64,000 nucleotides of DNA from a phage: sequence record PZ166176.1, one strand, 5' to 3'. Made by a program: the position numbers and the translations under genes. Numbering within the stretch: the stretch's first letter is position 1; each line of letters begins with the position of its first letter. Below the pieces are notes generated by a model. That model was not told the origin of the DNA, searched no databases, and saw only the letters and a program-made list of their open reading frames with translations. Below are positions 9,450 through 47,689 of the stretch, piece after piece.

Positions 9450-10142
9450 TTAAATAGCGGTTCCTTCGAAATCCGCCACATTTACGAGATTAATATTTTC
9501 AGATTTAGAAGTCAAGTTGTTTTCTGCAACAGATTTTTCTTCAGTATCCGCCTCGTTACCTGCCACGTTACGAGGTTCTTCTTCACCGTAGGGATTACCG
9601 AATTTCAAAAGATTGATCAATTCTTCTTTGGAGAAGTTTTCTAAATCATCATCTGTTAATTCAATAATCTCGTCTTGTTCTTCAATAAATGTTTCACCAC
9701 CAGAAAAAGCATCTCGCTTTTTAGCTACTTCCATAGCCTGTTCTGGTGTTGCCCCTGCATCAAGAGCAGCTAAAGCAAAATCTGACCCACTCCCTACTGC
9801 ATAATATTCTTCATCAATCGGGTATGCACGTGTTGGGTTGTTACCTTCGTGCAGGAAAATACGTCCGTCTGGATGAACAACAAGTGCAATAAACTCTTCA
9901 TCTTCTTTATCTGGATCAGAGTGAATCATCAAACCAGGGACAGCATCACGTGCTGCTTCGCACTGTAGATTTTGTTCAAACCATTGAAAGAAAGAAAGCA
10001 CGGAGGTCAGACGACCAGCACCACCTACAAGGTAATCTCCAATTTTTCGGACCTTTTTGAAATTAATAGAATCTACACGCCCACCAAAAGTTACCTTACC
10101 GTCACTCAAAATCTTATTTTTGGTTGCAATAATTGTCGTCAC
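9450..10142 (-). CDS. hslV: HslV (ClpQ)-like N-terminal-nucleophile peptidase with acidic C-terminal extension
   Basis: MTTIIA N-terminus (Thr nucleophile after Met), KKVRK, GGAG, AVGSGSDFALAALDAG align with E. coli HslV landmarks. Confidence 0.6.
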   Translation of the reverse strand: MTTIIATKNKILSDGKVTFGGRVDSINFKKVRKIGDYLVGGAGRLTSVLSFFQWFEQNLQCEAARDAVPGLMIHSDPDKEDEEFIALVVHPDGRIFLHEGNNPTRAYPIDEEYYAVGSGSDFALAALDAGATPEQAMEVAKKRDAFSGGETFIEEQDEIIELTDDDLENFSKEELINLLKFGNPYGEEEPRNVAGNEADTEEKSVAENNLTSKSENINLVNVADFEGTAI

Positions 10143-10677: not shown

Positions 10678-11436
10678 TTAAATAAACACTTCAGTAATCA
10701 GTTTAGACAAACGTCCACGTTTATTATCGTCCGTTGTCAGTTCAACATATCCAATAAAATCTACAATTGGCTCACGAACACCTTCTTCATTCTCTGGATA
10801 TAAAAGTTCCAAAATTTGATGCAGACCATTGCTACGTTTTTTAATTGCATATGTCTGGCGAACATCGCCTAATACAATAACATGCGTATTAATACCTGCA
10901 CGTTCAATAAGAAGTTTAAGTGTTTCTGTTGACATAAGTTGTGCTTCGTCAATAATGACGATTGTATTATCCAGGGTGGCCCCCAACAAATAGTTAGGAA
11001 TATTCAATTCGATCTTACCTGATCCAATATCGTTTTCCAATTTGTTGGCTGTCATGAATTGCTGGAAAATACGTTTTGTAGATTCATAGTGTGCTGCTAG
11101 TTTATCTGTTTTATCCCCAGACAAGAAACCAATCTGGTCATCTCCGACTTCAGTAGGGTTCTTGATAAAAAGTAGTTTACGGAAGTCTCCTGAACGAAGC
11201 ATCTGCAAAGCTTTCCATAAAGCAACAGAGGTTTTACCAGTCCCTGCCGGAGCATTTACAACAGTCAGATCATTCCAAATCATGCTTTGAACAATCTTAT
11301 TTTGGTCCCCTTCAGGCATAAATTCATCTAAACGGTAATCGTCATTACCTACCGCTTTTGCTGCATAACGGCTTTCAATCTTTGCTGAATTAGCCAGTTT
11401 CTGCCGTTGTGTTTTAGCTGCGGTTTTATTTCCCAT
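10678..11436 (-). CDS. phoH: PhoH-like ATPase
   Basis: Walker A GTGKTSVAL and PhoH-like downstream blocks; start moved to internal ATG (MGNKT) preceded by AAGGAG. Confidence 0.75.
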   Translation of the reverse strand: MGNKTAAKTQRQKLANSAKIESRYAAKAVGNDDYRLDEFMPEGDQNKIVQSMIWNDLTVVNAPAGTGKTSVALWKALQMLRSGDFRKLLFIKNPTEVGDDQIGFLSGDKTDKLAAHYESTKRIFQQFMTANKLENDIGSGKIELNIPNYLLGATLDNTIVIIDEAQLMSTETLKLLIERAGINTHVIVLGDVRQTYAIKKRSNGLHQILELLYPENEEGVREPIVDFIGYVELTTDDNKRGRLSKLITEVFI

Positions 11437-11473
11437 AGTAGCACTCCTTTTAGAAGGGGCCGAAGCCCCTTTA

Positions 11474-11974
11474 TTAGTTGTAAGCATCTAAAGTTCCAGA
11501 AGTCAGAACTTTAATTACTCGTTCAGCACGGTTTGGCGTCTGGCTATACCATCGGCTTTTACGCATGTTTTTACCTGCTTGAGTATAATATGCATTGCTG
11601 ATTAAAGTCAAGCTATTTTGAAACCCTTCAGCACCTTTTAACCCCAACTGGAAAACCATGTTAATTATTCCCAATTTACGAGTATCACTAACCTTATCAT
11701 AGATTGGTGATAAGATAGTACTGTTTTTTATGTCTCTCTTCACTTTTGCAACATCGTCAGCAAAGATTTGACGGGCTTCTTTTTCCGTGATAACTCCATT
11801 AGTCTTACGACCAAGAAGATTATCTAAGATTTGAATAGCCTTTGCTTTATCTTTTATTTTAGTCAGAAGGTGTCCTATGCCGACTGTCCAATAACCAAGA
11901 TGGTCTTGATAAACAGTAAGCTTCAGTCCTTCATCGACTCGTAGCATATCAAACTCATCTACTACTTTAGCCAT
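11474..11974 (-). CDS. T4-type lysozyme (endolysin)
   Basis: FDMLRVDEGLKLTVYQDHLGYWTVGIGHLL ... RWYSQTPNRAERVIKVLTSGTLDAY closely parallels T4 lysozyme. Confidence 0.85.
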   Translation of the reverse strand: MAKVVDEFDMLRVDEGLKLTVYQDHLGYWTVGIGHLLTKIKDKAKAIQILDNLLGRKTNGVITEKEARQIFADDVAKVKRDIKNSTILSPIYDKVSDTRKLGIINMVFQLGLKGAEGFQNSLTLISNAYYTQAGKNMRKSRWYSQTPNRAERVIKVLTSGTLDAYN

Positions 11975-12136: not shown

Positions 12137-12397
12137 TTACTCCGCAATTTGAGCCATGAGATCACGCAGTTCGGTAAAACCGCCTACGTATGTTACCTCC
12201 CCGTTCACTTCGGACAGAATTTGTGGAAATGTGCGTGGAGGAACTCCGGTAAGATCAACAACTGTTTTAGTCATTGATTCTAAATCATAGTCTTGATCAA
12301 GACTTAAATATTCAAACTGTTTATTGCGCATGGTTAATAGTTGTTTTGACATTTCACAAAATTGACAGTTAGGTTTACCAAAAATTACAAATTCCAT
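12137..12397 (-). CDS. glutaredoxin / NrdH-like redoxin
   Basis: CQFC active-site motif near N-terminus, 86 aa, next to RNR genes. Confidence 0.65.
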   Translation of the reverse strand: MEFVIFGKPNCQFCEMSKQLLTMRNKQFEYLSLDQDYDLESMTKTVVDLTGVPPRTFPQILSEVNGEVTYVGGFTELRDLMAQIAE

Positions 12398-13239
12398 TAC
12401 CTCTCCTTATTAAGTAATACTGCTAAAGACTGTTCAATACCTTTATTTAAATCTGATTTTGTAAGATAGTGACTGGTTACTAGTTGTGACTTCACCGGAC
12501 GTGCTGCTGGAGCATTATAGGTTGAAGCTGATACCGCCGATATCTTAACAGGTTCTGGCATCTGTGTCAAGATCTTTTCCGCAAACTCCGCCCAAGAAAT
12601 AAGATGGCTTCCTGCAAAATGGTAAGTCTTAACAGACCTTGACCAACCTGTTTTTAATACTTCAAAAATAGCTTCTGCTAAATCTGGAGCATATGTTGGA
12701 CAAGAGAACTGATCAGCAACAATAATAAAATCACGTTGTCCATCATTATAGCGAGACAACATGGTTTTTAGAAAGTTATTTCCAAATTCGCTATATACCG
12801 AGGCTGTTCGAATAATATATGCATTTGGGTTAACTCCTCGCACCATTTTTTCACCAAGTTCTTTCGTATACCCATAATTGTTTATTGGGTTAGGTGTAGT
12901 ATCTTCAAAAATAGGATGAGAATAATTAAAAATATAGTCTGTGGAAATATGCACAAAATCGATTTTAAGTTTGCTGCACACTGCCGCAATATTTGCAGGT
13001 CCATACGCATTAACAGCCAAAGCAGTAGCAAAATCATGTTCTGCTTTATCTACAGCCGTATAAGCGGCGCAATTAATAACCCCATCTACATAATCTTCAA
13101 CAATAGCGTTTCGCACAGCTTCAAAATTTGTAATATCTACACGTTCTTTAGGATAAATTAAAGATACATTTGAAGGAACCACTTTACGTAAAGCTTGTCC
13201 CAGTTGTCCATTACCACCCAATACCAGATATGTTAGCAT
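12397..13239 (-). CDS. rmlD: dTDP-4-dehydrorhamnose reductase-like (RmlD)
   Basis: N-terminal Rossmann LVLGGNGQLGQAL and YGYTKELGEK (YxxxK) as in RmlD. Confidence 0.65.
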   Translation of the reverse strand: MLTYLVLGGNGQLGQALRKVVPSNVSLIYPKERVDITNFEAVRNAIVEDYVDGVINCAAYTAVDKAEHDFATALAVNAYGPANIAAVCSKLKIDFVHISTDYIFNYSHPIFEDTTPNPINNYGYTKELGEKMVRGVNPNAYIIRTASVYSEFGNNFLKTMLSRYNDGQRDFIIVADQFSCPTYAPDLAEAIFEVLKTGWSRSVKTYHFAGSHLISWAEFAEKILTQMPEPVKISAVSASTYNAPAARPVKSQLVTSHYLTKSDLNKGIEQSLAVLLNKER

Positions 13240-13799
13240 ACACCCTCGCTACGTAACTGTTGAAAAGATTTAGCCATTGCATCTTTTGTTGATAAAATAG
13301 GTTTAAAACCTTCGTCAAAAATCATATCGAAGCCCCAATCAATCCCTATATCAGGATCATCCCAACGTAAACTTTGTTCACTAGAAGGGTCGTATGGAGT
13401 TGTGCATTTGTATTCAAAGATCGCATCCATACTCAAAACTATGAAACCATGTGCCAAACCAGGAGGAAGCCAAAACTGCGTATGGTGTCGTGCACGAAGA
13501 ACAACACCGTCCCAAGCACCGTAAGTTGGGCTATCTTTACGTAAATCTACAGCGAAATCCAATACTTCCCCACTTACACAACGAACAAGCTTACCTTGCG
13601 GATTATTTGTTTGAAAATGCATTCCTCGCAAAACACCGAAGTTTGATTTAGACATATTATCTTGAACGAAAGTTTGTTTACCAATGATATCTTCGTATTT
13701 TTGTTCATTGTATGTTTCTAAAAAGAAACCACGATCATCTTTATAAACGTCTGGTTTGATAATTACCGCACCTTCAATTTTTGTTTTTTCTACTTTCAT
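13233..13799 (-). CDS. rmlC: dTDP-4-dehydrorhamnose 3,5-epimerase (RmlC)
   Basis: DDRGFFLETYNEQ, VLRGMHFQ, GKLVRCVSGEV, PPGLAHGF, YDPSSEQSLRWDDPDIGIDW closely match RmlC. Confidence 0.8.
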   Translation of the reverse strand: MKVEKTKIEGAVIIKPDVYKDDRGFFLETYNEQKYEDIIGKQTFVQDNMSKSNFGVLRGMHFQTNNPQGKLVRCVSGEVLDFAVDLRKDSPTYGAWDGVVLRARHHTQFWLPPGLAHGFIVLSMDAIFEYKCTTPYDPSSEQSLRWDDPDIGIDWGFDMIFDEGFKPILSTKDAMAKSFQQLRSEGVC

Positions 13800-13808
13800 T
13801 TTCTCTCC

Positions 13809-14135
13809 TTACCAGACGTGTTGAGAAATAATAGTTTCCGTTTTAATATTATATTTTTCAAGTAGCTCTGCATAGGCTTCTTTTGCATTCTCATTCAATT
13901 GCTCAAGATCTACAGCTATGCTTCCTTCTCCGCCTTCTAAATCAAGGCCGTATATGCAATAAGACTCATCCGCATCGTAGAAAGGAGAGATGCGGCTTAA
14001 GTCCAGACCTTCTTGTAAGAACCAGTTAAAATCTCCATCAAATTCTTCTTCAATTCTAGGATCTTCTCCTACAGCCTCTTCCCACTTATTAAAAGGTGCA
14101 CCCTGTAACATACGCCATTCGATATCAATACCCAT
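13809..14135 (-). CDS. hypothetical acidic protein
   Basis: Track ORF 108 aa. Confidence 0.45.
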   Translation of the reverse strand: MGIDIEWRMLQGAPFNKWEEAVGEDPRIEEEFDGDFNWFLQEGLDLSRISPFYDADESYCIYGLDLEGGEGSIAVDLEQLNENAKEAYAELLEKYNIKTETIISQHVW

Positions 14136-14431: not shown

Positions 14432-14640
14432 TATTCCTCCTTAATTATTTCAAACTTGGCAACACCATTTACAATAATATGACCACAAGACATAACTCCT
14501 AGCCAAGGATCGCCGTTTTTCTTCCGGCGTTTACCGAATACATCACAAAAACCATTCTTCATTTCGGAGGCTTCATAAGAAGCCCCTTTGTCAAAAACGT
14601 CTTTGAATGTGTCGATTATACCAACACATCTCAAAATCAT
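14431..14640 (-). CDS. hypothetical small protein
   Basis: Track ORF 69 aa directly downstream of nrdB. Confidence 0.4.
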   Translation of the reverse strand: MILRCVGIIDTFKDVFDKGASYEASEMKNGFCDVFGKRRKKNGDPWLGVMSCGHIIVNGVAKFEIIKEE

Positions 14641-15725
14641 TAGAAGTCAAGCTCCTCATCATCAGAGAGATCTTTGTTAGCTGAATTCAATTTGTAATTA
14701 GTTAACTGAATCTCTTGGGCTGCTGACTGAATCAAATCAGGATTCAACCATTTTTCCATCCAAGCTAAAGGACTATGTTTAGGTGCTTTAAACTTGGCTT
14801 TCATTTTCAATCGACGATAAATAGGAGCAGCATTGAAATAAACCCACTGTTTAGACAATTCGGCGTTAAGACCTACAATAAAACGACCTTCACTAAACAG
14901 GTAGTCACACCACTGTTCCTCTTGTTCAACAACAGTGTCGAGGATCAAAGTCAACTCTTCAATATTGTCTTCGTAAATTTTACGCCAAATTGGGTCATGC
15001 ATCAATGCATCAATTACAGCATAATCCATCTTAACATGCAAGATTTCATCTAGCATAATTTTCTGGATCAGTTTACAAGCCCCAACAAACAGTTGTTGTT
15101 CTGCCATAGCAAAAGTAGCAGAGAAGGAAGATATAAACTGAATACCTTCTAATCCAATCAGGGCTACCATCCCTTTAAGAATCAGCAATCGAAGTTCATC
15201 GTTAGCTTCAATCAATCCTAGAGCATACTTATGACCAGCTTCTTCCAACTGACCCATGATATCAGCAATGATACCCATACGATTGAAAATTTTATCATTA
15301 ATCATAATCTGATTGATGACTTCAATTGGATCTGGAGTACATTGACGGATTATTTCAGAATACGTTAACGCATGGAGAACTTCCATTTCACTCTGCTTCA
15401 TCATCATAGCACAGGCTTCATTGTTACTCAAGAATGGAGAGAACAAAGTGATGATTGATTTTGCAAGAGAATCATTTTCCCATTGGAACGATAAGTTTTT
15501 AATCATAACATCGTAGTTGTTTTTAGAACAAGCTACGAAATCTTTACGTGTCTGATCCAGATTAACTTCGTTTTCATCCCAATCTTGTGCTTTTTGAAGC
15601 TTGTAGAGTTTGTGCATTTCTGGGTAAGTTACGTTAACAGAATCAAAGATCCCTAATTGCTCCCCCAAAAATACTGGATATTTTCCTGTTTTGTAAACTT
15701 CATTGTGTAAATTAATTGCTGCCAT
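14640..15725 (-). CDS. nrdB: ribonucleotide reductase class Ia small subunit (R2)
   Basis: 361 aa, ferritin-like, adjacent to nrdA; C-terminal acidic tail DDEELDF. Confidence 0.8.
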   Translation of the reverse strand: MAAINLHNEVYKTGKYPVFLGEQLGIFDSVNVTYPEMHKLYKLQKAQDWDENEVNLDQTRKDFVACSKNNYDVMIKNLSFQWENDSLAKSIITLFSPFLSNNEACAMMMKQSEMEVLHALTYSEIIRQCTPDPIEVINQIMINDKIFNRMGIIADIMGQLEEAGHKYALGLIEANDELRLLILKGMVALIGLEGIQFISSFSATFAMAEQQLFVGACKLIQKIMLDEILHVKMDYAVIDALMHDPIWRKIYEDNIEELTLILDTVVEQEEQWCDYLFSEGRFIVGLNAELSKQWVYFNAAPIYRRLKMKAKFKAPKHSPLAWMEKWLNPDLIQSAAQEIQLTNYKLNSANKDLSDDEELDF

Positions 15726-16050
15726 TTAAATCCTCCACTATTTCACAAAAACCTCTTAAGCTTAAAATATCTTCTTCCTCAAAATCATTGCTCCGGTAGA
15801 AAGCTTCCAGTGCTTCCCATACGCTTCTACCAAGTATAACAGTCACTGTTTCTTCACTTCTTGCCCTTGTTATTGCGTAAGCCGTGGCTTCTGGATAAAA
15901 AGATTCCCAAATCTGCATGTTAGCTATTTCAAGACCGCCAAGATAATGGTGGCACCAAGTAGGGGTAAAATCTTCAGGGCGAATCAACAGAGGCTTAAAC
16001 CCAGGTCGGTAGATTGGGGTTACTCCAGGTAAAACTATAAGTGTGCTCAT
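15712..16050 (-). CDS. hypothetical protein
   Basis: Start moved to internal ATG (MSTLIV) preceded by GAGGAGG and downstream of the nrdA terminator. Confidence 0.45.
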   Translation of the reverse strand: MSTLIVLPGVTPIYRPGFKPLLIRPEDFTPTWCHHYLGGLEIANMQIWESFYPEATAYAITRARSEETVTVILGRSVWEALEAFYRSNDFEEEDILSLRGFCEIVEDLNGSN

Positions 16051-16063
16051 AATCCTCCTCAAT

Positions 16064-16082
16064 AAAAAGGGGCTGAAGCCCC
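16064..16082 (-). terminator. rho-independent terminator after nrdA
   Basis: Minus strand GGGGCTTCAGCCCC hairpin followed by TTTTT. Confidence 0.5.
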
Positions 16083-16090
16083 TAGTTTCA

Positions 16091-18331
16091 TCACATTTTG
16101 CAAGCTTCACAACCACCATCAGAATCTTCTTGTGCTAAAGAGTCTGCTGATTTTGTTCTACTATTAAGGTAATACAATGACTTGCCACCCAGTCTGGCAA
16201 AATTCAGAATAAACTGCATCTCAGCTTTCACTGATAAACGTCCACCTACCAATTTAGAATAATCTAGCCAAGAATCACAAGAAATTCCTTGGTCCGTGAA
16301 TTTGGTAAAGATACCATACATTTCTGCAAGATCTTTAGCCGGAGTATCCCAGGCGGATTGGTAGAACATTTTCAGTTTTTCGTAGTCTGGAACAATAAAT
16401 AATACACTACCTTTCTGACTTTGTTTATACATGATAGTATCACGAACAGGATACAGAGAGTTAGTAGTATTGCTTACCAAACTGCTGGACTCATTAGGTG
16501 CAATAGCAGCCAAGACACTGTTACGGATACCACCTTGTTCAATGATTTCAGCACGTAAGCCTTCCCAGTCCATTTTAAGATCAAAATTACCGATACTATC
16601 TACTGTTTTAGCATAAGTGTCAATTGGTAGCCAACCTTGAGGCCATTTGGTCTTATCGATCCACTCTGCATTACCTTTTTCCTTAGCCAGACGCAGAGAG
16701 GCTTTTGCCAACCAAAAGTAATGACGTTCTGCAAGTTCATGCATTAATTTTTTAGCATAAGCATCTGAATAATTTACAAAATTACTTGCCAAGTAATGCG
16801 CTAAGTTTGTAATGCCTACACCAATAGATCTACGTGCTTTAGCAGTTATTTCGTTATGTTTAAATGGATAATCCATTGTTTCAATAACGTTGTCAATTGT
16901 CAATACAGTGTAGTATGCAACATCCTCATATTCTTCAGGTAAGACACGACCAGCCACAATAGAAGATAAGAAGCATAAAGCCAATTCTTGATCTTCTGTA
17001 TTCTCACCAGTAAAGAGATCCGGCATACTGTGGAAAGCTTTAGTTGGTAAGAAGATCTCTTGACACAGGTTTGATTGATACACCGTATCCAGGAAAGGTG
17101 TATGGTTGTTAACGTTGTCAGCAAAGAACATGTAAATACGTCCTGTTTCTGCACGTTGAACAATAATCTCTGTCAGAAGATCACGAGCCTTAACAAATTT
17201 TTTCTTAATGCGACGACGGCTTACTTTGTCATAAACTGCATCAAACTCTTCTTCACTTTTATACAAAGCTTCATAAAGTTCAGGAGCATCATCACAACTA
17301 ACTAACATCCAATCTTCGTTTTTTGCTGCTCGACGCAAGAACGAACGGTTAACAACAATAGAATAATCCAGTTTGTCTACTCGTTTATCTATAGGTGTTG
17401 TTGGATTCTTCAGTCGAATCAGATCGTCGAAGTCTGGTTCAAGTATGGTAAAGGTAACTGTAGCACTACCTCCACGACTTGCTTGCTTCGAAGCTCCAAC
17501 ACTATCTTCCATCCATTTCAGATACGGAAGAAGACCACCATGAATAATACGATTATTCTTAACACCTTGACCTGTGGCACGAGTTTGAAGATTAACACCA
17601 ATACCTGCGTTATTCAACGTATACTCATGAGCTAAGTAATTAGCAATGGCTAAAGACTCTGCCGTATCGTCTGCACGGAATAAACAACAAGACGCACTTC
17701 CTTTGATTGGAGTTCGTAGAGTTGTCAGATACGGCGATGGCAGATTAATCTTAAGATCGCTAACATAAGTATAAAGTTTTTTAATATCTTCTATACGGCG
17801 TTCTTTTGGTTGGATCTCCATAACCTTCATTGCGATACCAATGAAAAGAAACTGTGGAGACTCATGCACCACATCGTTTACTGCATCTCGAATAAGATAT
17901 TTATCTACCATCTGGCGTAAAACAGAATAACCATAAGTTAGATTTTTATTATGCTTTACAATCTTACCGATTTCTTTGATCTCTTCATCAGTATAATCCA
18001 TTTTAGCCCAATGTCCACGTTCTACCATATCATGATAAAAGGTATTCAGTGAAGGGATACTGTGGTATCCCCCATGAGCCTGTTTGTAAATCATACCCAG
18101 AAGAAGTCTTCCTGCCATATCACTGTAAGCTTGTGTTTTCTTGTCAATACACGCTGCAATCATTGCTTTATGCAGATCACGTGTAGACACACCGTCATAA
18201 CACCGCTTCACAGCTTCTAATTCAATTTCAGACCAGTTTAGTTTACCTGCTGCAAATTCAGACCACTTGCGAAGTTTTTCTGGATTAAACTCCTCTGTCT
18301 TACCATTAGATTTAGTTACAAAACGAATCAA
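16091..18331 (-). CDS. nrdA: ribonucleotide reductase class Ia large subunit (R1)
   Basis: 746 aa; ATP-cone-like N-terminus, catalytic-core blocks, C-terminal redox cysteines ...GGCEACKM. Confidence 0.85.
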   Translation of the reverse strand: MIRFVTKSNGKTEEFNPEKLRKWSEFAAGKLNWSEIELEAVKRCYDGVSTRDLHKAMIAACIDKKTQAYSDMAGRLLLGMIYKQAHGGYHSIPSLNTFYHDMVERGHWAKMDYTDEEIKEIGKIVKHNKNLTYGYSVLRQMVDKYLIRDAVNDVVHESPQFLFIGIAMKVMEIQPKERRIEDIKKLYTYVSDLKINLPSPYLTTLRTPIKGSASCCLFRADDTAESLAIANYLAHEYTLNNAGIGVNLQTRATGQGVKNNRIIHGGLLPYLKWMEDSVGASKQASRGGSATVTFTILEPDFDDLIRLKNPTTPIDKRVDKLDYSIVVNRSFLRRAAKNEDWMLVSCDDAPELYEALYKSEEEFDAVYDKVSRRRIKKKFVKARDLLTEIIVQRAETGRIYMFFADNVNNHTPFLDTVYQSNLCQEIFLPTKAFHSMPDLFTGENTEDQELALCFLSSIVAGRVLPEEYEDVAYYTVLTIDNVIETMDYPFKHNEITAKARRSIGVGITNLAHYLASNFVNYSDAYAKKLMHELAERHYFWLAKASLRLAKEKGNAEWIDKTKWPQGWLPIDTYAKTVDSIGNFDLKMDWEGLRAEIIEQGGIRNSVLAAIAPNESSSLVSNTTNSLYPVRDTIMYKQSQKGSVLFIVPDYEKLKMFYQSAWDTPAKDLAEMYGIFTKFTDQGISCDSWLDYSKLVGGRLSVKAEMQFILNFARLGGKSLYYLNSRTKSADSLAQEDSDGGCEACKM

Positions 18332-19107: not shown

Positions 19108-20106
19108 TCACCATTTAGTATGATTTGTTAAAAGTTGACGATGTTGAATCCAGCCTTTGAAATTGCCAGACCAAAACTTACCATTACGATCTACATGGGT
19201 AATACCTGGTTCCCAAGAGTTAAAATCCCAAGGAGCATTGATAAACAAATCTTCAAAACAGTTCTCTCCATATTGTTCGTATGTTTCTTGAATTGGAGTG
19301 GCCTGATGTTCAAACGGAGAAGCATGAACCTTGCGCCCAGTCAGCAAGCGACCATAAATATCTAAAGCTTTATCTTTAGTTGCATTTAAACGACGATAGC
19401 TAACCTGTGCACAACATGAAGCTGAAATAGCTTTGGCTTCTTCCAAAGTAAGCACAACAACTTCTCCAGATTCATCTTGAACGTAGTATCCACCAAAAAC
19501 AAAATGATCGTCACCTTCTGTGCCAATATTATCGTAGAAATGGTCTACATAAGGTGTGTGCCATTGCCCTGGTTTCAGCACTTCTGGTGTAGATCCTTCA
19601 TACTCTTTGTGCATCTCTTTAGCCAAAGCTTCGATAGTAGGATCGGCTTCTTTGTCATCACGTAGCCACCAGAAATTTTCATATTCTGTTGCTGTCAGAA
19701 CTGTTTTAATTCGTTGGAAAGGTTCCAGAAGACGGTTTGCAACTTGTTTGTGGTACCCTGCCAAAGAGAATTCTTCTGCAAAACGTGCTGCACTAAGCGC
19801 GGCAAGATCCCACCACTCTTGAGCAGTATAACCTGCATCAATAAGAGCGTCATGATCAACACCTTTATCCTGCATACCAGGTTGGTTAGCCCCAAAACGA
19901 TAAGGACGAGCAGGTTGATTTCGCACCATTTCAATCAGTGTTTTAACAGGTATAGCACGGCTAGAAGCAGCATTACGACTAAACAGGCGGTGAGTCATCA
20001 ATTCTGAATGAATAATACGTGGATATTCTAGTTCAAAAGTTACAATCTCTTTTCCGTCTTCAGTGATGGAATGCGCAATAATACTAGCCGAAATCTGTTT
20101 TGTCAT
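19108..20106 (-). CDS. thyX: ThyX-family (flavin-dependent thymidylate synthase-like) protein with C-terminal extension
   Basis: ELMTHRLFSRNAASSRA parallels the ThyX LMRHRxFSxxxxSQRY signature, but first Arg of RHR is Thr. Confidence 0.55.
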   Translation of the reverse strand: MTKQISASIIAHSITEDGKEIVTFELEYPRIIHSELMTHRLFSRNAASSRAIPVKTLIEMVRNQPARPYRFGANQPGMQDKGVDHDALIDAGYTAQEWWDLAALSAARFAEEFSLAGYHKQVANRLLEPFQRIKTVLTATEYENFWWLRDDKEADPTIEALAKEMHKEYEGSTPEVLKPGQWHTPYVDHFYDNIGTEGDDHFVFGGYYVQDESGEVVVLTLEEAKAISASCCAQVSYRRLNATKDKALDIYGRLLTGRKVHASPFEHQATPIQETYEQYGENCFEDLFINAPWDFNSWEPGITHVDRNGKFWSGNFKGWIQHRQLLTNHTKW

Positions 20107-20115: not shown

Positions 20116-20724
20116 TTAGTTTTTAAAATTGTTCAAAGTGTTAAAAACATCCAAACATGTTAGCCACTGATCTTCTAAACCTGTGATCACAACATTTGGT
20201 TTTTTCTTTAGTTCTTCTAGATGGTTATCTTTATAAGGCGTATTAAAATATATTTTAACCACTTCATCTGGAAAATATAGTAGGTTATCAGCCCTGTCAT
20301 CTATTGCTATATCACAAGGCAATAAGTATTTTTCTTTCGTAGCAAAAAAGCCGTTACCAGATCCTTTGCTAAAATCAATCGTATCTAACGTTCTTAAAAC
20401 ATGCTTATGTTTAGAACTTAAGTGACCACCTTTTGTCACACTTGCGATCAAAAGATTGCTACCTTTCCTTGAAACATACTTTAAGAAATCTGGCATACCT
20501 GGAACAAAACCCATTGTATCATAGAGATGAGGATTATCCAGAAATCCGTAAGGATCTATATTGAACTCCTCCCTGAAACCAGGAAAGTAGTTGGTAAGAT
20601 CATAGTCTGCATTTTTTGTGAATGTGTCTATCTTAACACCAAGTCCACTAATCTTATTCAACCATTCTAACCAAGCAACATCTAATGGAGCCACAACTAA
20701 ATCCCAATCACATACTATCTGCAT
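20116..20724 (-). CDS. 5'(3')-deoxyribonucleotidase-like HAD-family hydrolase
   Basis: N-terminal DWD HAD motif I (MQIVCDWDLVV) and overall size/pattern of NT5C-type phage nucleotidases. Confidence 0.55.
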   Translation of the reverse strand: MQIVCDWDLVVAPLDVAWLEWLNKISGLGVKIDTFTKNADYDLTNYFPGFREEFNIDPYGFLDNPHLYDTMGFVPGMPDFLKYVSRKGSNLLIASVTKGGHLSSKHKHVLRTLDTIDFSKGSGNGFFATKEKYLLPCDIAIDDRADNLLYFPDEVVKIYFNTPYKDNHLEELKKKPNVVITGLEDQWLTCLDVFNTLNNFKN

Positions 20725-35005: not shown

Positions 35006-35080
35006 GGCCCTGTAGCTCAATGGGAGAGCTGTCGGCTCATAACCGATAGGTAGCTGGATCGAAACCAGCCAGGGCCACCA
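35006..35080 (+). tRNA. tRNA with CAT anticodon (resembles tRNA-Ile2 / elongator Met)
   Basis: Hand-folded cloverleaf: acceptor GGCCCTG/CAGGGCC, anticodon loop CTCATAA, T-loop ATCGAAA, encoded CCA. Confidence 0.7.
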
Positions 35081-35082
35081 AC

Positions 35083-35157
35083 GTCTTTATGGTGTAATGG
35101 ATAGCACAGGAGTCTTCTAAACTCTTAGTCAAGGTTCGATTCCTTGTAAAGACACCA
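35083..35157 (+). tRNA. tRNA-Arg (TCT)
   Basis: Acceptor GTCTTTA/TAAAGAC, anticodon loop CTTCTAA, T-arm CAAGG-TTCGATT-CCTTG, CCA. Confidence 0.7.
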
Positions 35158-35158
35158 G

Positions 35159-35342
35159 AACATTTTAACATGAATTAGCTCAAGTGATTTGAACCCACTA
35201 CTGATCATGGTGGCAGAGAATGAGGCAAGTATGTCAGACATTATAAACAAAGGCCACGGTTATATTAGAAGACATAAATGCTCGAAGAGCACCGTTCGTT
35301 GAGAACGGGGGTTGGTGGAGTCACCATTCATGGTAAAATGTT
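35159..35342 (+). ncRNA. structured RNA of about 185 nt following tRNA-Arg
   Basis: 5' AACATTTTAACATGAAT pairs with 3' ATTCATGGTAAAATGTT (one mismatch); no ORF. Confidence 0.35.
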
Positions 35343-35353
35343 TTAAAAAACTA

Positions 35354-35384
35354 TTGACAACTAACATTATTTTATGTTAGATTA
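35354..35384 (+). promoter_or_regulatory. sigma70-like promoter (ctaTTGACAa ... TGtTAGATT)
   Basis: TTGACA and extended -10-like element upstream of tRNA-Ser. Confidence 0.45.
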
Positions 35385-35391
35385 TAAGTAT

Positions 35392-35482
35392 GGAAGGGCA
35401 AATCGACGTGGCGACGAAAACGGTCTTGAAAACCGCCGAGCTTGAAAGAGCCTTGGGAGTTCGACTCTCCCTCCTTCCGCCA
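35392..35482 (+). tRNA. tRNA-Ser (TGA), long variable arm
   Basis: Acceptor GGAAGGG/TCCTTCC, anticodon loop CTTGAAA, long variable arm, T-arm GGGAG-TTCGACT-CTCCC, G73-CCA; D-arm atypical. Confidence 0.55.
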
Positions 35483-35486
35483 GATT

Positions 35487-35572
35487 GGTAGATTGGTGAA
35501 ATGGTAGCCACGACAGTTTGCTAAACTGTAGTCGGAAACGGCGTGTAGGTTCGAGTCCTACATCTACCGCCA
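35487..35572 (+). tRNA. tRNA-Ser (GCT), long variable arm
   Basis: Acceptor GGTAGAT/ATCTACC, anticodon stem ACAGT/ACTGT loop TTGCTAA, variable arm AGTCGGAAACGGCGT, G73-CCA. Confidence 0.7.
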
Positions 35573-35578
35573 AATTAA

Positions 35579-35664
35579 GATGAGTTGGCTGAATGGTTTA
35601 AGCGGCGGACTGTTAATCCGTGTTCGAAAGAACGATATAGGTTCAAATCCTATACTCATCGCCA
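35579..35664 (+). tRNA. class II (long variable arm) tRNA with GTT (Asn) anticodon; identity ambiguous
   Basis: Acceptor GATGAGT/ACTCATC (7 bp), anticodon stem GCGGA/TCCGT loop CTGTTAA, variable arm GTTCGAAAGAACGAT with GTTC/GAAC stem, T-arm ATAGG-TTCAAAT-CCTAT, G73-CCA. Confidence 0.55.
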
Positions 35665-35671
35665 GAATTAT

Positions 35672-44085: not shown

Positions 44086-45087
44086 ATGCCAGCAGTAATT
44101 TTAGATCAGGTTGTAGATTTCAGCCCTATGATCGAACTTCAGGATTCCCCTGATACACTGATTGCCAGCCTGAATCTGTTCAGTGTTGACTATCATTCAA
44201 CTACCGCTATTGAAATCGGTAAAGAAAAAGCTGAAGATGCTCTGATCTCCGCTCGTGAGCGTGGTGGTGAGCGTAACTTCCTGAGCATGAAAAATCCAGA
44301 ACTGAAAGCGTTCCGCATTCCGTTCTTCCCTCTGGATAAAAACATCAAAGCTCAAGATATCCAATCTTTCCGTAGCTTTGCAATGGCAGGAATCAATGAC
44401 TCTCTGCGCACAGACGCTGAAGTTGTTAACCGCTATATGTCCCAGATTCTACGTGACGTAGCAAAAACCAAAGAGAAAATCTTTGCAGAAGCAGTTATGG
44501 GTCGTGCCTATAACGGCGTAGGTGGTGCAGCTAACTCTGCATACAACTGGTATACCGAATGGGGTGCTACCCAGAAATCTGTTGCTGTAGACTTTGCTTC
44601 TACCACTATTTCTCCAGCAGCCACTATCGAGAAAGAAGCTCGTGCTTACATCATCGATACTAAACAAGATGGCTCTACCGCTACTCGTATCGTAGCTCTG
44701 TGTTCTCGTGAATTTTTCGCATCTCTGGTTAACTCTCCATTTGTTCGCCAGGCGTATCAGTATTTCCAGGGAACTCCTAACCTTCTGCGTGACCGCCTTA
44801 GCGGTAACATGGATGTTCAGGTGTTCGAATGGAACGGTGTAACTTACATTGAAGATATCCACGGTAACATCCCTGCTGGTGAAGCATATGTTCTGCCTAT
44901 GGGTATCGAAGGTATGTTCCAGGCGCACTACGCTCCTGCGGATACTCCAGAACTGGCTAACACCCAGGCTCGTGAACTGTATACCTTCATGATCAGCCAG
45001 CACCGCACTATTCAGCTTCAGTCTGAATTCTCGCTGCTCGCAGTTAACACCCGTCCAGAACTGGTAGTTAAACTGACTACGGCTTAA
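44086..45087 (+). CDS. major capsid protein (lambda gpE-like family)
   Basis: 333 aa; C-terminal LANTQARELYTF parallels lambda gpE LGNTQARGLRTY; followed by strong terminator. Confidence 0.75.
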   Translation: MPAVILDQVVDFSPMIELQDSPDTLIASLNLFSVDYHSTTAIEIGKEKAEDALISARERGGERNFLSMKNPELKAFRIPFFPLDKNIKAQDIQSFRSFAMAGINDSLRTDAEVVNRYMSQILRDVAKTKEKIFAEAVMGRAYNGVGGAANSAYNWYTEWGATQKSVAVDFASTTISPAATIEKEARAYIIDTKQDGSTATRIVALCSREFFASLVNSPFVRQAYQYFQGTPNLLRDRLSGNMDVQVFEWNGVTYIEDIHGNIPAGEAYVLPMGIEGMFQAHYAPADTPELANTQARELYTFMISQHRTIQLQSEFSLLAVNTRPELVVKLTTA

Positions 45088-45108
45088 TAGAACTCTGTTA
45101 AGATTAGA

Positions 45109-45140
45109 GGCTCGTCCGTGATGGGCGAGCCTTTTCTGTT
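45109..45140 (+). terminator. rho-independent terminator after major capsid gene
   Basis: GGCTCGTCC-gtgat-GGGCGAGCC hairpin followed by TTTTCTGTTT. Confidence 0.65.
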
Positions 45141-45171
45141 TACAATAAGAGTTTACAACGAGGAGATTGAT

Positions 45172-45516
45172 ATGTCAAACCCAGAATTGAAACGTTACTT
45201 TAGTTATCACGAAATGATTCGTGATTTCGAATCGCTTTCACCACTGATCGATGCTGATAAAACATTAGTATCTGCGCCACCAATGTCTTTCTATCTGAAA
45301 GATGGTCGTATTGCATTAGGTGGAAACTTCATCCACTTCCTCACACGTTTGAGAGAAGAAACAGGTATTCTTGTGCATCCTTTTGCAAGTGAAGAACACA
45401 TGGGTTACTATCTTGTAAGTTACGAAGACTATGCACCTGTAAAAATCAAAGAAGAAGTTTTAAAAGTAGAAGCGGTAGACACTCCAGCTAAAAAACGTTC
45501 CCTTCGTAAAAAATAA
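45172..45516 (+). CDS. hypothetical head-associated protein
   Basis: ATG (MSNPEL) after GAGGAG, downstream of terminator. Confidence 0.45.
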   Translation: MSNPELKRYFSYHEMIRDFESLSPLIDADKTLVSAPPMSFYLKDGRIALGGNFIHFLTRLREETGILVHPFASEEHMGYYLVSYEDYAPVKIKEEVLKVEAVDTPAKKRSLRKK

Positions 45517-45525
45517 GGTGGGCTT

Positions 45526-46074
45526 ATGCTGAATGCGGTAGAGTTGGCACCACTGATCCGAATTCTTGTTTATAACCCTTCTCAAGAAGTATTGCCAGAT
45601 GCAATGCTGATTCAGATCATCCAAACTTGGATTGATATTATAGGGAATGAAGATAAGGATAAGTGTGCAGTATTGTGGAACAGCTTGATTTCTGTTTTAG
45701 AGTATCTATGGAACAACGATGTTCTTAACAACAGTACTCAAACAGGAGGAGCTATGTCCCGCAGAGAAAAGATGGGTGAAGTCGAAGTTGAAGTTAAATT
45801 TAACAACGGTCAAGTAACTTATAAGTCTCCGTGGGAAGATATCTATCATAACTATTTAAACGGTCTTATGGTCATTCCTGGGTGCACGGCAGGACGAGGA
45901 GCAACCAGTAAAGTTCTTATTGGCGGTGTGGATGCTCGTGAGATTGATCGAGTAAACAGCGATCCTAACTCTGTGAATGGTCTTGGTAATGTTGCAAGTG
46001 TTGATCGTAATACACGTAACGTTAATTATTTGCGAAATTACGGACCTGTTTCTTTTTATCGTAGGGACAAATAA
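45526..46074 (+). CDS. putative head-tail connector / neck protein
   Basis: Position between capsid and tail genes. Confidence 0.35.
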   Translation: MLNAVELAPLIRILVYNPSQEVLPDAMLIQIIQTWIDIIGNEDKDKCAVLWNSLISVLEYLWNNDVLNNSTQTGGAMSRREKMGEVEVEVKFNNGQVTYKSPWEDIYHNYLNGLMVIPGCTAGRGATSKVLIGGVDAREIDRVNSDPNSVNGLGNVASVDRNTRNVNYLRNYGPVSFYRRDK

Positions 46075-46562
46075 TGGAAAGTGAGATCTTACCAGGTGAC
46101 GATACAGATTGGGAAACCATTATCAAAAAGATGATGGATCTTGAACAAGTTCAAATCGAAGCTGGTTTTTTAACAAACAAAAGGCATCCTGAATCAGATC
46201 TCACTATTCCTGCAATAGCAGCTATTCAACAATATGGTAATGAAACAAACAACATACCTGCTCGCCCTTTTATAACAGATGGTGCTGTTATCTCACAGAA
46301 CAATATCGCTAAAAAGATGAAGCAGGTGTTTGCAAATTACTTACTGAATAATGTCGGGTTAGCTGTTTTTGAGCCTATAGCGAGAGCCTCTAGAGAAGGA
46401 ATAGCTCAAGCGATTGCAATGCAACGTTATCGTCCTTTATCTCCTGTGACAATTAAGATACGACAAGATAAAGGCAACTATTCTAATCATATCTTAATAG
46501 ATACGGCACACATGATAAATGCAATCGAAACAAAAATCACAAAAAGCAAGTCTAAAAAATAA
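46074..46562 (+). CDS. putative neck / head completion protein
   Basis: Track ORF 162 aa, start overlaps upstream stop. Confidence 0.35.
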   Translation: MESEILPGDDTDWETIIKKMMDLEQVQIEAGFLTNKRHPESDLTIPAIAAIQQYGNETNNIPARPFITDGAVISQNNIAKKMKQVFANYLLNNVGLAVFEPIARASREGIAQAIAMQRYRPLSPVTIKIRQDKGNYSNHILIDTAHMINAIETKITKSKSKK

Positions 46563-46563
46563 C

Positions 46564-46592
46564 TTGCATAAACTTTGTTTTTGATGTATACT
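46564..46592 (+). promoter_or_regulatory. sigma70-like promoter (TTGCAT-17-TATACT)
   Basis: TTGCATaaactttgtttttgatgTATACT. Confidence 0.45.
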
Positions 46593-46607
46593 AAAAAGGA
46601 GATACAA

Positions 46608-47024
46608 GTGTTACTAGATCAATTTACTCTCCTTGATCTAACTGAATACCAAGGTCGTAGACGAGTCTACAAAGAGGCCGTTGGTTCAGTTATTGCTAAC
46701 TTAGAAAGTAGTGTAGAATATGAACAATTTACTATTGAAGCGGCAAGCTTACAACCGATATCTGGTAAAACACTGAATGCACTACCTGAAGGTTACAGAT
46801 CTAAGGCTCAATATAGTTTCTGGACTAAAACAGAAATGAAGGGGTTACAACAAGGAACAGAACAGTTATCAGATCAGATATTGATAGATGGTAAATGGTA
46901 TTCTGTTTATTCCCTTAAAGATTGGACCAGAACATCTTTCTTAGTCCATCATCACTGTGTTGCGATATTAGACGATCAAAACAACTCCTGGTCTTATGGA
47001 ACAGAAGGAGGAAACTTTGGCTAA
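46608..47024 (+). CDS. putative tail completion / neck protein
   Basis: GTG start after AAAGGAG; track start 46575 lies inside the promoter. Confidence 0.4.
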   Translation: MLLDQFTLLDLTEYQGRRRVYKEAVGSVIANLESSVEYEQFTIEAASLQPISGKTLNALPEGYRSKAQYSFWTKTEMKGLQQGTEQLSDQILIDGKWYSVYSLKDWTRTSFLVHHHCVAILDDQNNSWSYGTEGGNFG

Positions 47025-47655
47025 TATTTACCAACAAATAGAAGCATACGAAAATGCCATCTACTTAAATATAGGTGGCTTCCTTCAAGAATTAGTGGGG
47101 TTGCCAGTCTATGTTATGGATAAGCCATTCATTAAACCGGATACTCCTTACCTAGCACTACGTATTATCACTTCCAGCGATTCTGGAGGTTGGTCTTACC
47201 GAAGCTCTATTCAAAATGATATGTATTCCTACGAGATGGATAATACCTACGAGATTGAACTTGTAGCCTATCGTGGAAGACCTACCACTTTGATGAGCTA
47301 TGTTCTGGCTGCTCTCCGTGGTGCAGAGGAATTAAAATACAAACATCTCTATTCTAAAGGTCTTGGTTTTTTAGGAGCCTCCAATATAGCTCAAGCCAAT
47401 ACAATTGTAGACGGAGATAAGACTGAATTAAGAGCGCGTATGGTTATGACGTTCAACACTCGTATGAGTATTGAAGATATTGCTACTACACCAATAGAAG
47501 CAATCAACATGCACATCCGTTCATTCAGAGATAGTTACAATGATCCTATCCCTTTAGATTTAATTCTAAACAGGATTTATGCAATTACTTTGGTTCCAGG
47601 CGAATACTCGTCAGTCAATCAAAATGGATCATTATTTAACAACCCTACCGAATAA
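46996..47655 (+). CDS. putative tail sheath stabiliser / tail terminator
   Basis: 219 aa immediately upstream of sheath gene. Confidence 0.35.
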   Translation: MEQKEETLANIYQQIEAYENAIYLNIGGFLQELVGLPVYVMDKPFIKPDTPYLALRIITSSDSGGWSYRSSIQNDMYSYEMDNTYEIELVAYRGRPTTLMSYVLAALRGAEELKYKHLYSKGLGFLGASNIAQANTIVDGDKTELRARMVMTFNTRMSIEDIATTPIEAINMHIRSFRDSYNDPIPLDLILNRIYAITLVPGEYSSVNQNGSLFNNPTE

Positions 47656-47689
47656 ACTCATTGGAATTAAGTTTCTAACAGGAGCATAA

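Follow-up and report, generated by a model that had tools for sequence, protein, structure and literature searches.

The window analysed here, a stretch of 64,000 nucleotides of phage DNA (PZ166176.1), belongs to a phAPEC8-like myovirus (Phapecoctavirus) with 99.1-99.2% identity to 536P1, Mt1B1_P17 (NC_052662) and ESCO37 (OM386659), and is collinear with Mt1B1_P17. Its minus strand carries two adjacent genes, rmlC and rmlD, predicted to encode the epimerase and the reductase that convert dTDP-4-keto-6-deoxy-D-glucose into dTDP-L-rhamnose (Table 1). The stop of rmlC and the start of rmlD overlap by 7 nt, and rmlD in turn shares a start/stop overlap with the glutaredoxin-like gene that follows it in the same minus-strand gene string. 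A first-pass annotation, made from the sequence alone, had placed the pair in a nucleotide-metabolism block, and a glutaredoxin-like gene, both ribonucleotide reductase (RNR) subunits and a ThyX-like protein are indeed located nearby. The order nrdB, small ORFs, rml, glutaredoxin, lysozyme and phoH is common to the window, phAPEC8 (JX561091), ESCO37, phi92 (NC_023693) and phiWec186, and the glutaredoxin gene 3′ of rmlD is also found in phAPEC8 and phi92. Terminator-like hairpins at 16083-16068(-) and 9444-9429(-) bracket the gene string that contains rmlC and rmlD; these come from a promoter and terminator scan that yields consensus-level hints only.

Table 1. Features at and around the rmlC-rmlD locus (positions in the window)
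Feature	Positions	Strand	Details
Glutaredoxin-like gene	12137-12397	-	PF00462, 1.8e-9; directly 3′ of rmlD
rmlD, dTDP-4-dehydrorhamnose reductase (EC 1.1.1.133)	12397-13239	-	280 aa, activity predicted
rmlC, dTDP-4-dehydrorhamnose 3,5-epimerase (EC 5.1.3.13)	13233-13799	-	188 aa, activity predicted
Deletion junction and rmlC ribosome-binding site	13800-13808	-	Coding orientation TAA-GGAGAGAAA-ATG
Hypothetical ORF	13809-14135	-	108 aa; no Pfam match; directly upstream of rmlC
nrdB, RNR small subunit	14640-15725	-	Pfam scan
Variable ORF	15712-16119	-	135 aa; between nrdB and nrdA
nrdA, RNR large subunit	16091-18331	-	ORF; annotated NrdA in collinear relative
ThyX-like protein	19108-20106		Thy1, 33 bits vs cut-off 24.8

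Identity of the RmlC and RmlD proteins

RmlC matches the cupin family PF00908 (dTDP_sugar_isom) with E = 7.8e-67, residues 5-180 aligning to profile positions 1-167 of 168, and scores 225.3 bits on the NCBIfam equivalog TIGR01221 (cut-off 155.75). It also matches PHROG 8784 (3e-93), and a sequence search of the PDB returns bona fide RmlC structures as top matches (for example 1dzr, ~7e-56). In the alignment to E. coli K-12 RfbC, to which the phage protein is 44% identical, the catalytic set is kept: H61 (in RGMHFQ), K70 (in QGKLVR), Y130 (in EYK) and D173 (in STKD), all of which also align with residues of solved RmlC structures. Established structural work on RmlC assigns the His as the catalytic base and the Tyr as the acid, the set being completed by the Lys and by the Asp of the His-Asp dyad.

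RmlD matches PF04321 (E = 2.6e-73) and passes its equivalog TIGR01214 narrowly (238.2 bits vs a cut-off of 224.05), while it fails the enterobacterial-type model NF007440 (118 vs 308). The top PDB matches by sequence are the RmlD structures 3sc6 and 1vl0 (~1e-44). Alignment to K-12 RfbD (~30% identity) shows that the GGNGQLG (GxxGxxG) motif and the T100/Y122/K126 triad are kept: G8/G11/G14, T100, Y122 and K126 correspond to G7/G10/G13, T104, Y128 and K132 of RfbD, and the same motifs recur when RmlD is aligned with 3sc6 and 1vl0. Hence the assignment of positions 12397-13799 to RmlD and RmlC in the first-pass annotation holds, with both ORFs present, above their equivalog cut-offs and with their catalytic residues in place, and we infer that they encode functional enzymes.

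The phage proteins share enzyme families and catalytic residues with the bacterial RmlA/B/C/D set (E. coli rfbBDAC). In contrast to the bacterial proteins, they fall in a phage clade of their own and so were not recently acquired from the host; nor do their genes lie within an O-antigen cluster. Identity of RmlD to its nearest bacterial homologues reaches 44% at most, against 51-100% for homologues on ~150 kb contigs, and its GC content is typical of the phage genome. By these comparisons RmlD is an old phage-lineage allele and not of the enterobacterial type.

Loss of rmlB and rmlA and maintenance of rmlC and rmlD

The first-pass annotation had also remarked that RmlA and RmlB are missing from the window. 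This was confirmed by tblastn with phAPEC8 queries: RmlA had no match in the 64 kb, and the sole match of RmlB was an SDR cross-match onto RmlD. Both genes are likewise absent from bases 1-150000 of the closest two-gene genome, Mt1B1_P17, so that the full rml operon elsewhere, which the first-pass annotation had named as a find that would speak against its reading, is absent there; for the present phage, absence beyond the window is extrapolated from such relatives. No remnant of rmlA or rmlB was seen at any two-gene locus examined. Sibling phages carry the full rmlB-rmlA-rmlC-rmlD set at this very locus, namely phAPEC8, phi92, phiWec186 and six further sampled phages.

Relative to these four-gene phages, the window misses a clean 1,876 bp that corresponds exactly to rmlB plus rmlA. 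The 108-aa ORF, whose syntenic counterpart in phi92 is gp069, borders the deletion on the left and precedes rmlB in the four-gene phages. The junction contains GGAGA, a 5-bp microhomology common to the Shine-Dalgarno sites of rmlB and rmlC in four-gene phages, which break at query positions 505-509 of a junction probe. The rmlC ribosome-binding site is exactly preserved, and the junction is the same in the window and in all 9 sampled close two-gene relatives. These comparisons suggest that an ancestral locus carried rmlB-rmlA-rmlC-rmlD, with the RNR genes on one side and those for glutaredoxin and lysozyme on the other. A deletion between the two GGAGA motifs would then have taken out precisely the first two genes and put rmlC behind the 108-aa ORF, leaving the ribosome-binding site of rmlC as it was.

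Judged from this gene content, the rmlBACD operon is ancestral to the subfamily Stephanstirmvirinae and the window is a derived deletion variant. The first-pass annotation had described a phage carrying only the epimerase and the reductase; the two genes do stand alone, but as what is left of a longer operon and not through acquisition of the last steps of the pathway. Synteny around rml is the same as in phAPEC8 and phi92, and the window proteins are 99.5% (RmlC) and 98.6% (RmlD) identical to those of phAPEC8. Unlike in these two phages, the loss of rmlB and rmlA leaves the pathway incomplete without the host.

Both genes are missing at the locus in 23 deposited records, representing 19 distinct phages whose origins span several countries and hosts. 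In trees of the flanks, two-gene and four-gene genomes are interleaved, which points either to recombination between them, as described by Nicolas 2023, or to recurrent deletion, two histories that these trees do not separate. MirsaeidiM_Esher1 has a junction unlike that of the other two-gene phages, which suggests a second, separate loss of rmlB and rmlA. All this is already known from GenBank annotations and from published work (Olsen 2020; Maffei 2021; and, for ESCO37 without rmlA and rmlB, Nicolas 2023), and its description here adds nothing beyond those annotations and three papers. The rmlCD-only locus occupies the same place in ESCO37, Mt1B1_P17, nepoznato (MN850571) and 536P1; in rmlCD-only GenBank genomes both genes are already annotated as epimerase and reductase, and Nicolas et al. 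2023 stated that ESCO37 is without the thymidylyltransferase and the dehydratase. RmlC and RmlD of ESCO37 are both identical to those of the window, which differs from the rmlCD-only genomes in nothing of substance, being a slightly different mosaic (structural half 98.4% at best).

In two-gene and four-gene genomes alike, strong purifying selection has kept rmlC and rmlD intact. Indeed, rmlC and rmlD were intact in 19/19 sampled copies, the 11 sampled two-gene copies were all full-length with ATG starts, and pN/pS was 0.071 among two-gene genomes and 0.063 among four-gene genomes, with 0.069 for comparisons between the two groups. The RmlC protein of the window is 100% identical to that of ESCO37, Mt1B1_P17 and nepoznato; its full identity to RmlC of five sampled two-gene phages holds despite 13-24 synonymous differences in the coding DNA of rmlC plus rmlD. 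Even MirsaeidiM_Esher1, a two-gene phage that has diverged from the window to a dS of 0.20, shows a dN/dS of 0.063. Since two-gene and four-gene genomes may recombine, part of the selection measured in the former may have acted in four-gene backgrounds.

Proposed host supply of the intermediate

The substrate of RmlC, dTDP-4-keto-6-deoxy-D-glucose, is made in E. coli by RffH and RffG, encoded by genes of the enterobacterial common antigen (ECA). The genes rffG and rffH lie in an operon, and rffG-rffH were present in 5,306 of 5,426 complete E. coli genomes (97.8%). By comparison, rfbC was detectable in 2,199/5,426 (40.5%), a lower bound given the DNA-level search, in a genome set skewed to clinical and laboratory strains. 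The rmlB and rmlA genes would thus be dispensable because nearly every E. coli makes the intermediate for ECA, and rmlC and rmlD would be retained because up to ~60% of E. coli, by the same DNA search, have no detectable copy.

That the phage taps the host pool of dTDP-4-keto-6-deoxy-D-glucose had been proposed in the first-pass annotation, and it is the best-supported reading, given that rmlC and rmlD stay intact under purifying selection in genomes without rmlA and rmlB and that rffG/rffH are near-universal. Host RffH/RfbA and RffG/RfbB would turn glucose-1-phosphate and dTTP into this intermediate, phage RmlC would epimerise C3 and C5, and phage RmlD would reduce C4 to give dTDP-L-rhamnose. 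The most likely users of this sugar are four conserved glycosyltransferases of the phage, whose genes lie in another part of the genome. We consider that a deletion-derived split dTDP-L-rhamnose pathway, feeding phage glycosyltransferases in a virulent phAPEC8-like phage, is the best explanation as a whole, with a probability of about 0.7. It builds on gene identity, deletion anatomy, retention under selection and host gene frequencies, which are direct observations, and from these predicts that the enzymes are active, that they draw on the host pool, that the glycosyltransferases use their product and what kind of acceptor receives it. Two-gene and four-gene phages occur side by side in nature and offer, along with host mutants in rffG/rfbB and rfbC/rfbD, a ready-made genetic test system.

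Glycosyltransferases and the possible destination of the sugar

A search for glycosyltransferases in the rest of the genome, as proposed in the first-pass annotation, was productive in relatives: Mt1B1_P17 carries four adjacent ones, outside the region that matches the window. The distribution of this cluster equals that of rmlC (65 records with at least 95% identity plus ~63 phi92-like and other relatives), and it is kept in two-gene phages. The proteins give weak GT-A/GT-B Pfam matches and are labelled simply 'glycosyltransferase' in PHROGs, and a PDB search by sequence gave no meaningful match for gp103 and gp105; a fold of the GT-A or GT-B type would not in itself reveal the acceptor. The cluster is the likely candidate consumer of dTDP-rhamnose; its co-occurrence with rml lies within one monophyletic subfamily and hence counts as a single phylogenetic observation, weak as a functional link.

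The literature found on the rml genes of these phages consists of genome descriptions and speculation, with no experimental work; Olsen 2020 (PMC7552041) called the pathway 'peculiar', its purpose unknown. Among acceptors we would rank a protein of the virion or another protein first, a glycan of the host envelope second and DNA last. Our tentative proposal, which we regard as possible and no better than that, is that in the Stephanstirmvirinae the rml genes and the four glycosyltransferases serve to rhamnosylate proteins of the virion or some other target that is not DNA, and that rmlCD-only variants depend on RffH/RffG. If true, this would be a clean case of a phage auxiliary pathway trimmed to exactly those steps that hosts cannot reliably provide. 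Homologues of one of the four glycosyltransferases, Mt1B1_P17 gp103, occur in ~330 Mycobacterium phage records (~26% identity). In cluster F phages such as Che8, glycosyltransferases near the genome end are described as glycosylating capsid proteins (PMC11256854, citing Freeman et al. 2023). In contrast to that system, a glycosylated virion protein would be a prediction for the Stephanstirmvirinae, and the similarity is remote and confined to the GT-A core, so that the likeness is a lead by analogy and not a membership. We know of no report of rml genes in mycobacteriophages. Phapecoctavirus and phi92-like phages, which all carry a sugar-nucleotide pathway and four glycosyltransferases, are among the coliphages of broadest host range and are in development for therapy and biocontrol. 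A sugar on the virion could change how the particle is recognised by the immune system and its pharmacokinetics, effects that have been reported for mycobacteriophages with glycosylated virions, and such a phage would be the first rhamnosylated coliphage particle; a sugar on the host envelope or on DNA would bear on superinfection and defence evasion.

Manipulation of the host envelope, in which the host dTDP-4-keto-6-deoxyglucose pool is redirected so that receptors change or dTTP is spared, is in our judgement unlikely. Rhamnose could be supplied for modifying the LPS, ECA or capsule of the infected cell; otherwise the precursor of Fuc4NAc, a sugar of ECA, could be drained, or dTDP-rhamnose could inhibit RmlA/RffH by feedback. 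WecE and RmlC do compete for the one intermediate made by rffG/rffH, ECA is regarded as the bona fide primary receptor of the phage group (Maffei 2021, PMC8594841), and the PHROG class of RmlC and the glycosyltransferases is 'moron, auxiliary metabolic gene and host takeover'. On the other hand, the ancestral and commonest form of the locus has rmlA and rmlB and would raise flux instead of draining or shutting it, and envelope glycans already in place are not removed within one lytic cycle. Furthermore, the annotated genes around the glycosyltransferases include no flippase, polymerase or ligase, and the literature reports no phenotype.

Rhamnosylation of modified bases in phage DNA, with dTDP-rhamnose as donor by analogy with T4 glucosyl-hydroxymethylcytosine, is less likely again. 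T-even phages combine hydroxymethylcytosine with alpha- and beta-glucosyltransferases; phage-encoded sugar transfer, and rml genes lying among those of nucleotide metabolism, are what the present phages would have in common with them. Olsen et al. 2020 put this idea forward and Vitt et al. 2024 (PMC10844046) restated it; the first-pass annotation had offered it as well. Two short matches of gp103 also point this way, one to the TET-associated glycosyltransferase (TAGT) family PF20691, which is sub-threshold (E = 1e-3, 19.5 bits vs a cut-off of 27.5), and one to the beta-glucosyl-HMC alpha-glucosyltransferase PHROG (7.6e-6 over 39 residues), but both cover no more than the DXD region generic to GT-A enzymes. 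What disfavours DNA glycosylation is that phi92-like relatives, which have all four rml genes and the glycosyltransferases, were measured to be 'exceptionally susceptible' to RM systems (Maffei 2021). Moreover, the annotation of a complete relative genome lists no dCMP/dUMP hydroxymethylase, TET/JBP or 5-hmdU kinase, and the sole thymidylate-synthase-like gene, the ThyX-like one, occurs in 1,035 phage records that include groups without rml. Neither these annotations nor the ThyX-like distribution revealed a hydroxymethyl-base pathway that follows the rml genes. Unlike T-even phages, these phages have no annotated base-hydroxymethylating enzyme specific to them and their relatives are restriction-sensitive; the donor, too, would be a dTDP-deoxyhexose where T-even phages use UDP-glucose. 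The ThyX-like gene, spread across unrelated groups, was ruled out as a system-specific base modifier, and its protein has no solved homologue by sequence.

It is improbable that RmlC and RmlD make another dTDP-6-deoxyhexose, such as 6-deoxy-L-talose (through the opposite C4 reduction) or a mono-epimerised sugar. The narrow passage of RmlD over its equivalog cut-off, its failure against the enterobacterial model and its low identity to K-12 RfbD would allow for such a product, as would the 3- or 5-mono-epimerases of the RmlC fold that appear among the lower PDB matches of RmlC. Against it, both proteins lie above curated equivalog thresholds and keep their full catalytic sets, the solved structures closest to them are those of authentic RmlC and RmlD, and in its ancestral form the operon holds the canonical set of four rml genes.

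Most improbable of all is that rmlC and rmlD are decaying, functionless leftovers, for although half of the operon is already gone and K-12 has its own rfbC and rfbD, so that the phage copies look redundant in laboratory hosts, the two-gene copies are full-length, their pN/pS is as low as in four-gene genomes, RmlC has stayed identical across synonymous divergence, selection is equally visible in MirsaeidiM_Esher1 and the ribosome-binding site of rmlC is exactly kept.

Identity and setting of the two rml genes

The overlapping genes that the first-pass annotation had read as rmlC and rmlD were found at exactly the coordinates it gave (Table), and their products are very probably the enzymes of steps 3 and 4 towards dTDP-L-rhamnose. 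In profile searches, RmlC matched Pfam PF00908 (E = 7.8e-67), the NCBIfam equivalog TIGR01221 (225.3 bits, cut-off 155.75) and PHROG 8784 (3e-93), and RmlD matched PF04321 (2.6e-73) and TIGR01214 (238.2 bits, cut-off 224.05). Among solved structures, both proteins came closest to authentic enzymes of the same name, RmlC to 1dzr and relatives (about 7e-56) and RmlD to 3sc6 and 1vl0 (about 1e-44). Furthermore, alignment to E. coli K-12 RfbC and RfbD showed that all catalytic positions of RmlC (H61, K70, Y130 and D173) are conserved, as are the G8/G11/G14 dinucleotide motif and the T100/Y122/K126 triad of RmlD.

By sequence, both are long-resident phage genes and not a recent capture. RmlD falls within a clade of phage proteins (51-100% identical to homologues on contigs of about 150 kb, at most 44% to the nearest bacterial ones), and the GC content of the pair, 37.3%, matches the 38.7% of the window.

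The nucleotide-metabolism neighbours named earlier, namely glutaredoxin, ribonucleotide reductase (RNR; nrdB and nrdA) and a ThyX-like protein, are all present. For the ThyX-like protein, sequence searches returned no homologue of solved structure. The region shares 99.1-99.2% identity with 536P1, Mt1B1_P17 and vB_EcoM_ESCO37 (ESCO37), three Phapecoctavirus genomes of virulent myoviruses of about 150 kb from the phAPEC8 group of subfamily Stephanstirmvirinae, and the window is collinear with Mt1B1_P17 across 61 kb at 98.4-98.9% identity. The peptidase/PhoH gene order downstream of rmlD is kept in phi92. The insert ORF between nrdB and nrdA, which has no Pfam match, is missing from Mt1B1_P17, ESCO37, nepoznato and ECO340P1 (nothing in Mt1B1_P17 corresponds to window 15736-16051); it measures 408 bp in dw-ec, and SF1-1, ZCKP1 and phiWec186 carry a 339-bp version. 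The tRNA block sits where GC skew and coding strand switch, at about 34 kb.

Table. Features of the window and, in the last row, of the relative Mt1B1_P17
Feature	Position	Strand	Remarks
HslV-family peptidase homologue	9450-10142	-	annotation in relatives; downstream of rmlD, same gene string
PhoH-like ATPase	10678-11487	-	PF02562, 1.2e-36; downstream of rmlD, same gene string
Glutaredoxin	12137-12397		
rmlD, dTDP-4-dehydrorhamnose reductase	12397-13239	-	280 aa; overlaps rmlC ORF
rmlC, dTDP-4-dehydrorhamnose 3,5-epimerase	13233-13799	-	188 aa, full-length; overlaps rmlD ORF
RNR small subunit	14640-15725		
135-aa ORF between nrdB and nrdA	15712-16119	-	variable insert; terminator-like hairpin 16083-16068
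RNR large subunit	16091-18331		
ThyX-like protein	19108-20106	-	332 aa, divergent; partial Thy1 match only, 33 bits
NT5C-like 5'-nucleotidase	20116-20724		adjoins ThyX-like gene
10 tRNA genes (Met, Arg, Ser, Asn, Thr, Gly, Gln, Pro, Ile, Met)	35006-36710	+	
XkdF-like phage serine protease	42049-42528	+	PF14550, 1.4e-11; between portal and capsid genes
Glycosyltransferase genes gp102-gp105	45046-48190 of Mt1B1_P17 (NC_052662)		four consecutive genes, record annotation; outside window-covered part

Deletion of rmlB and rmlA from a four-gene operon

The first-pass annotation had noted that rmlA and rmlB are missing. Indeed, tblastn with the phAPEC8 proteins found neither in the 64-kb window, the sole match being RmlB on RmlD, an expected cross-hit between SDR proteins. 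The search beyond the window that it had called for gave the same answer: no RmlA or RmlB homologue was present in 150,000 of the 151,202 bases of Mt1B1_P17, a complete genome with only rmlC and rmlD at the locus (a two-gene phage), and no two-gene locus searched held remnants of either gene.

In phAPEC8 the locus reads rmlB-rmlA-rmlC-rmlD, an order also found in six other sampled Phapecoctavirus genomes, in phiWec186 and in phi92, of the sister genus Justusliebigvirus. All these four-gene genomes share nrdB and small ORFs upstream, and glutaredoxin, lysozyme and phoH downstream. Since phAPEC8, other Phapecoctavirus and phi92 have the same operon and flanks, the four-gene form is ancestral and the deletion in the window is derived. 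In phAPEC8, rmlB starts after ...TGGTAAGGAGA followed by ACTGATG, and rmlC, 1,876 bp further, after ...AGCGGAGA followed by GAAAATG; the window reads ...TGGTAAGGAGAGAAAATG at the junction. The comparison places the deletion between two Shine-Dalgarno GGAGA motifs, so that rmlC retains its own ribosome-binding site and spacing. A junction-spanning probe was uninterrupted in 23 records (19 distinct phages), while all four-gene phages broke it at one 5-bp overlap.

The junction is identical in the window and nine sampled close two-gene relatives. In the more divergent MirsaeidiM_Esher1, rmlB and rmlA are absent after the same upstream ORF but the spacer is different and longer, which suggests a second, independent loss. 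The two-gene form makes up about one third of the records carrying this rmlC allele. In neighbour-joining trees, built separately for the left and the right flank, two-gene genomes are intermingled with four-gene ones, indicating that the polymorphism segregates in a recombining population; this fits the recombinant between ESCO5 and ESCO37 that Nicolas et al. 2023 reported. A third operon variant occurs in phiWec186 (LC739535, 2625-5900), PsgM04F and phiWec190, with RmlA 97-98% identical to that of phAPEC8 and RmlC/RmlD only about 65% identical to the window's. These identities indicate an allelic replacement of rmlCD with its breakpoint at the rmlA/rmlC boundary, the boundary also used by the deletion.

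Both remaining genes are full-length in 19/19 sampled copies. Their pN/pS is equally low among two-gene phages (0.071), among four-gene phages (0.063) and between them (0.069), showing that selection is not relaxed, although part of this constraint may stem from four-gene backgrounds because both forms recombine. The window differs from ESCO37 by 14 synonymous and no non-synonymous changes, and from MirsaeidiM_Esher1 by a dS of 0.20 with a dN/dS of 0.063.

Probable host supply and possible use of the sugar

In E. coli, RffH and RffG produce dTDP-4-keto-6-deoxy-D-glucose, the substrate of RmlC, from which the Fuc4NAc residue of enterobacterial common antigen (ECA) also derives. RffH and RffG are annotated within the wec cluster, and of 5,426 complete E. 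coli genomes 5,306 (97.8%) carry the rffG-rffH pair. A sensitive DNA search detected rfbC in 2,199 of the 5,426 (40.5%), which is a minimum, as alleles of high divergence could escape it. With one pair near-universal and the other gene not, a very broad-host-range phage can rely on its host to perform steps 1 and 2, whereas steps 3 and 4 are not assured. This asymmetry supports the proposal of a phage drawing on the host pool, and explains the loss of rmlB and rmlA alone better than any alternative at hand. We favour a split pathway, to which as a whole we assign a probability of about 0.7: a deletion between GGAGA motifs removed rmlB and rmlA from the ancestral operon, host RffH/RffG or RfbA/RfbB would provide the first two steps, and phage RmlC and RmlD would perform the last two, the dTDP-rhamnose feeding phage glycosyltransferases.

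The glycosyltransferases whose search had been suggested were found as gp102-gp105 of Mt1B1_P17. PHROGs assigned all four to glycosyltransferase families, Pfam gave weak GT-A or GT-B signals only, and gp104 is a paralogue of gp105 (41% identity). They are conserved across Stephanstirmvirinae and kept in two-gene phages at 99-100% identity. They are likely consumers of dTDP-rhamnose, because their distribution over 50,697 phage records (65 at ≥95% identity, plus about 63 phi92-like or other relatives) matches that of rmlC; being confined to one clade, this co-occurrence counts as one evolutionary observation. For gp103, we found sub-threshold matches to DNA-glucosyltransferase-type profiles, and about 330 Mycobacterium phage records contain distant homologues of it, at about 26% identity. 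In Mycobacterium phages, capsid proteins are glycosylated by glycosyltransferases whose genes lie near the genome end, according to a passage of PMC11256854 citing Freeman 2023, and by analogy the gp103 homologues offer a lead towards virion glycosylation.

Glycosylation of phage DNA with the sugar, suggested in Olsen et al. 2020, taken up again in Vitt et al. 2024 and raised in the first-pass annotation, is disfavoured. Phi92-like relatives are 'exceptionally susceptible' to restriction-modification despite this machinery (Maffei et al. 2021), and the annotation of the complete relative genome lists no hydroxymethylase, TET/JBP or related enzyme. The ThyX-like gene beside RNR is generic: the 1,035 phage records that have it (rV5-like, ICP1, PB1-like and N4-like phages among them) include many groups lacking rml genes. 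Less probably, the sugar may serve to remodel the host envelope, or the pathway to drain the ECA precursor; either role fits poorly with an ancestral form that has rmlA and rmlB too.

Earlier descriptions and public records

The feature is real, and was correctly read and sensibly interpreted, but it is already known. RmlC and RmlD are so annotated in dozens of GenBank records, and those of ESCO37 are identical to the window's proteins. Olsen et al. 2020, who described it from both genera, termed the pathway peculiar and stated it to be complete in all phapecoctaviruses, a statement that does not hold for nepoznato and anhysbys, both among the phages of that study. Maffei et al. 2021 treated the pathway as putative dTDP glycosylation machinery, and Nicolas et al. 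2023 explicitly reported ESCO37 as lacking the thymidylyltransferase and dehydratase. Our literature searches returned no experimental study of rml gene function in these phages. What we add (the exact anatomy and frequency of the deletion, a probable second loss, continued selection on rmlC and rmlD, and a host-genome asymmetry explaining the pattern) refines a known feature and does not amount to a new one.

Some host labels look doubtful, as E. coli-phage-like alleles occur under unrelated host names. Campylobacter phage B15 (MG065650) and Acinetobacter phage ABPW7 (OP562383) have about 98-99% DNA identity to E. coli Phapecoctavirus here, Campylobacter phages A145 (MG065645) and C3 (MG065656) carry phi92-like alleles, and RmlA of Pseudomonas phage PsgM04F (OR584014) is 98.6% identical to that of phAPEC8. 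Finally, the counterpart of the XkdF-like protease gene (gp148) is labelled 'DNA methyltransferase' in a relative's RefSeq record, probably an annotation error.
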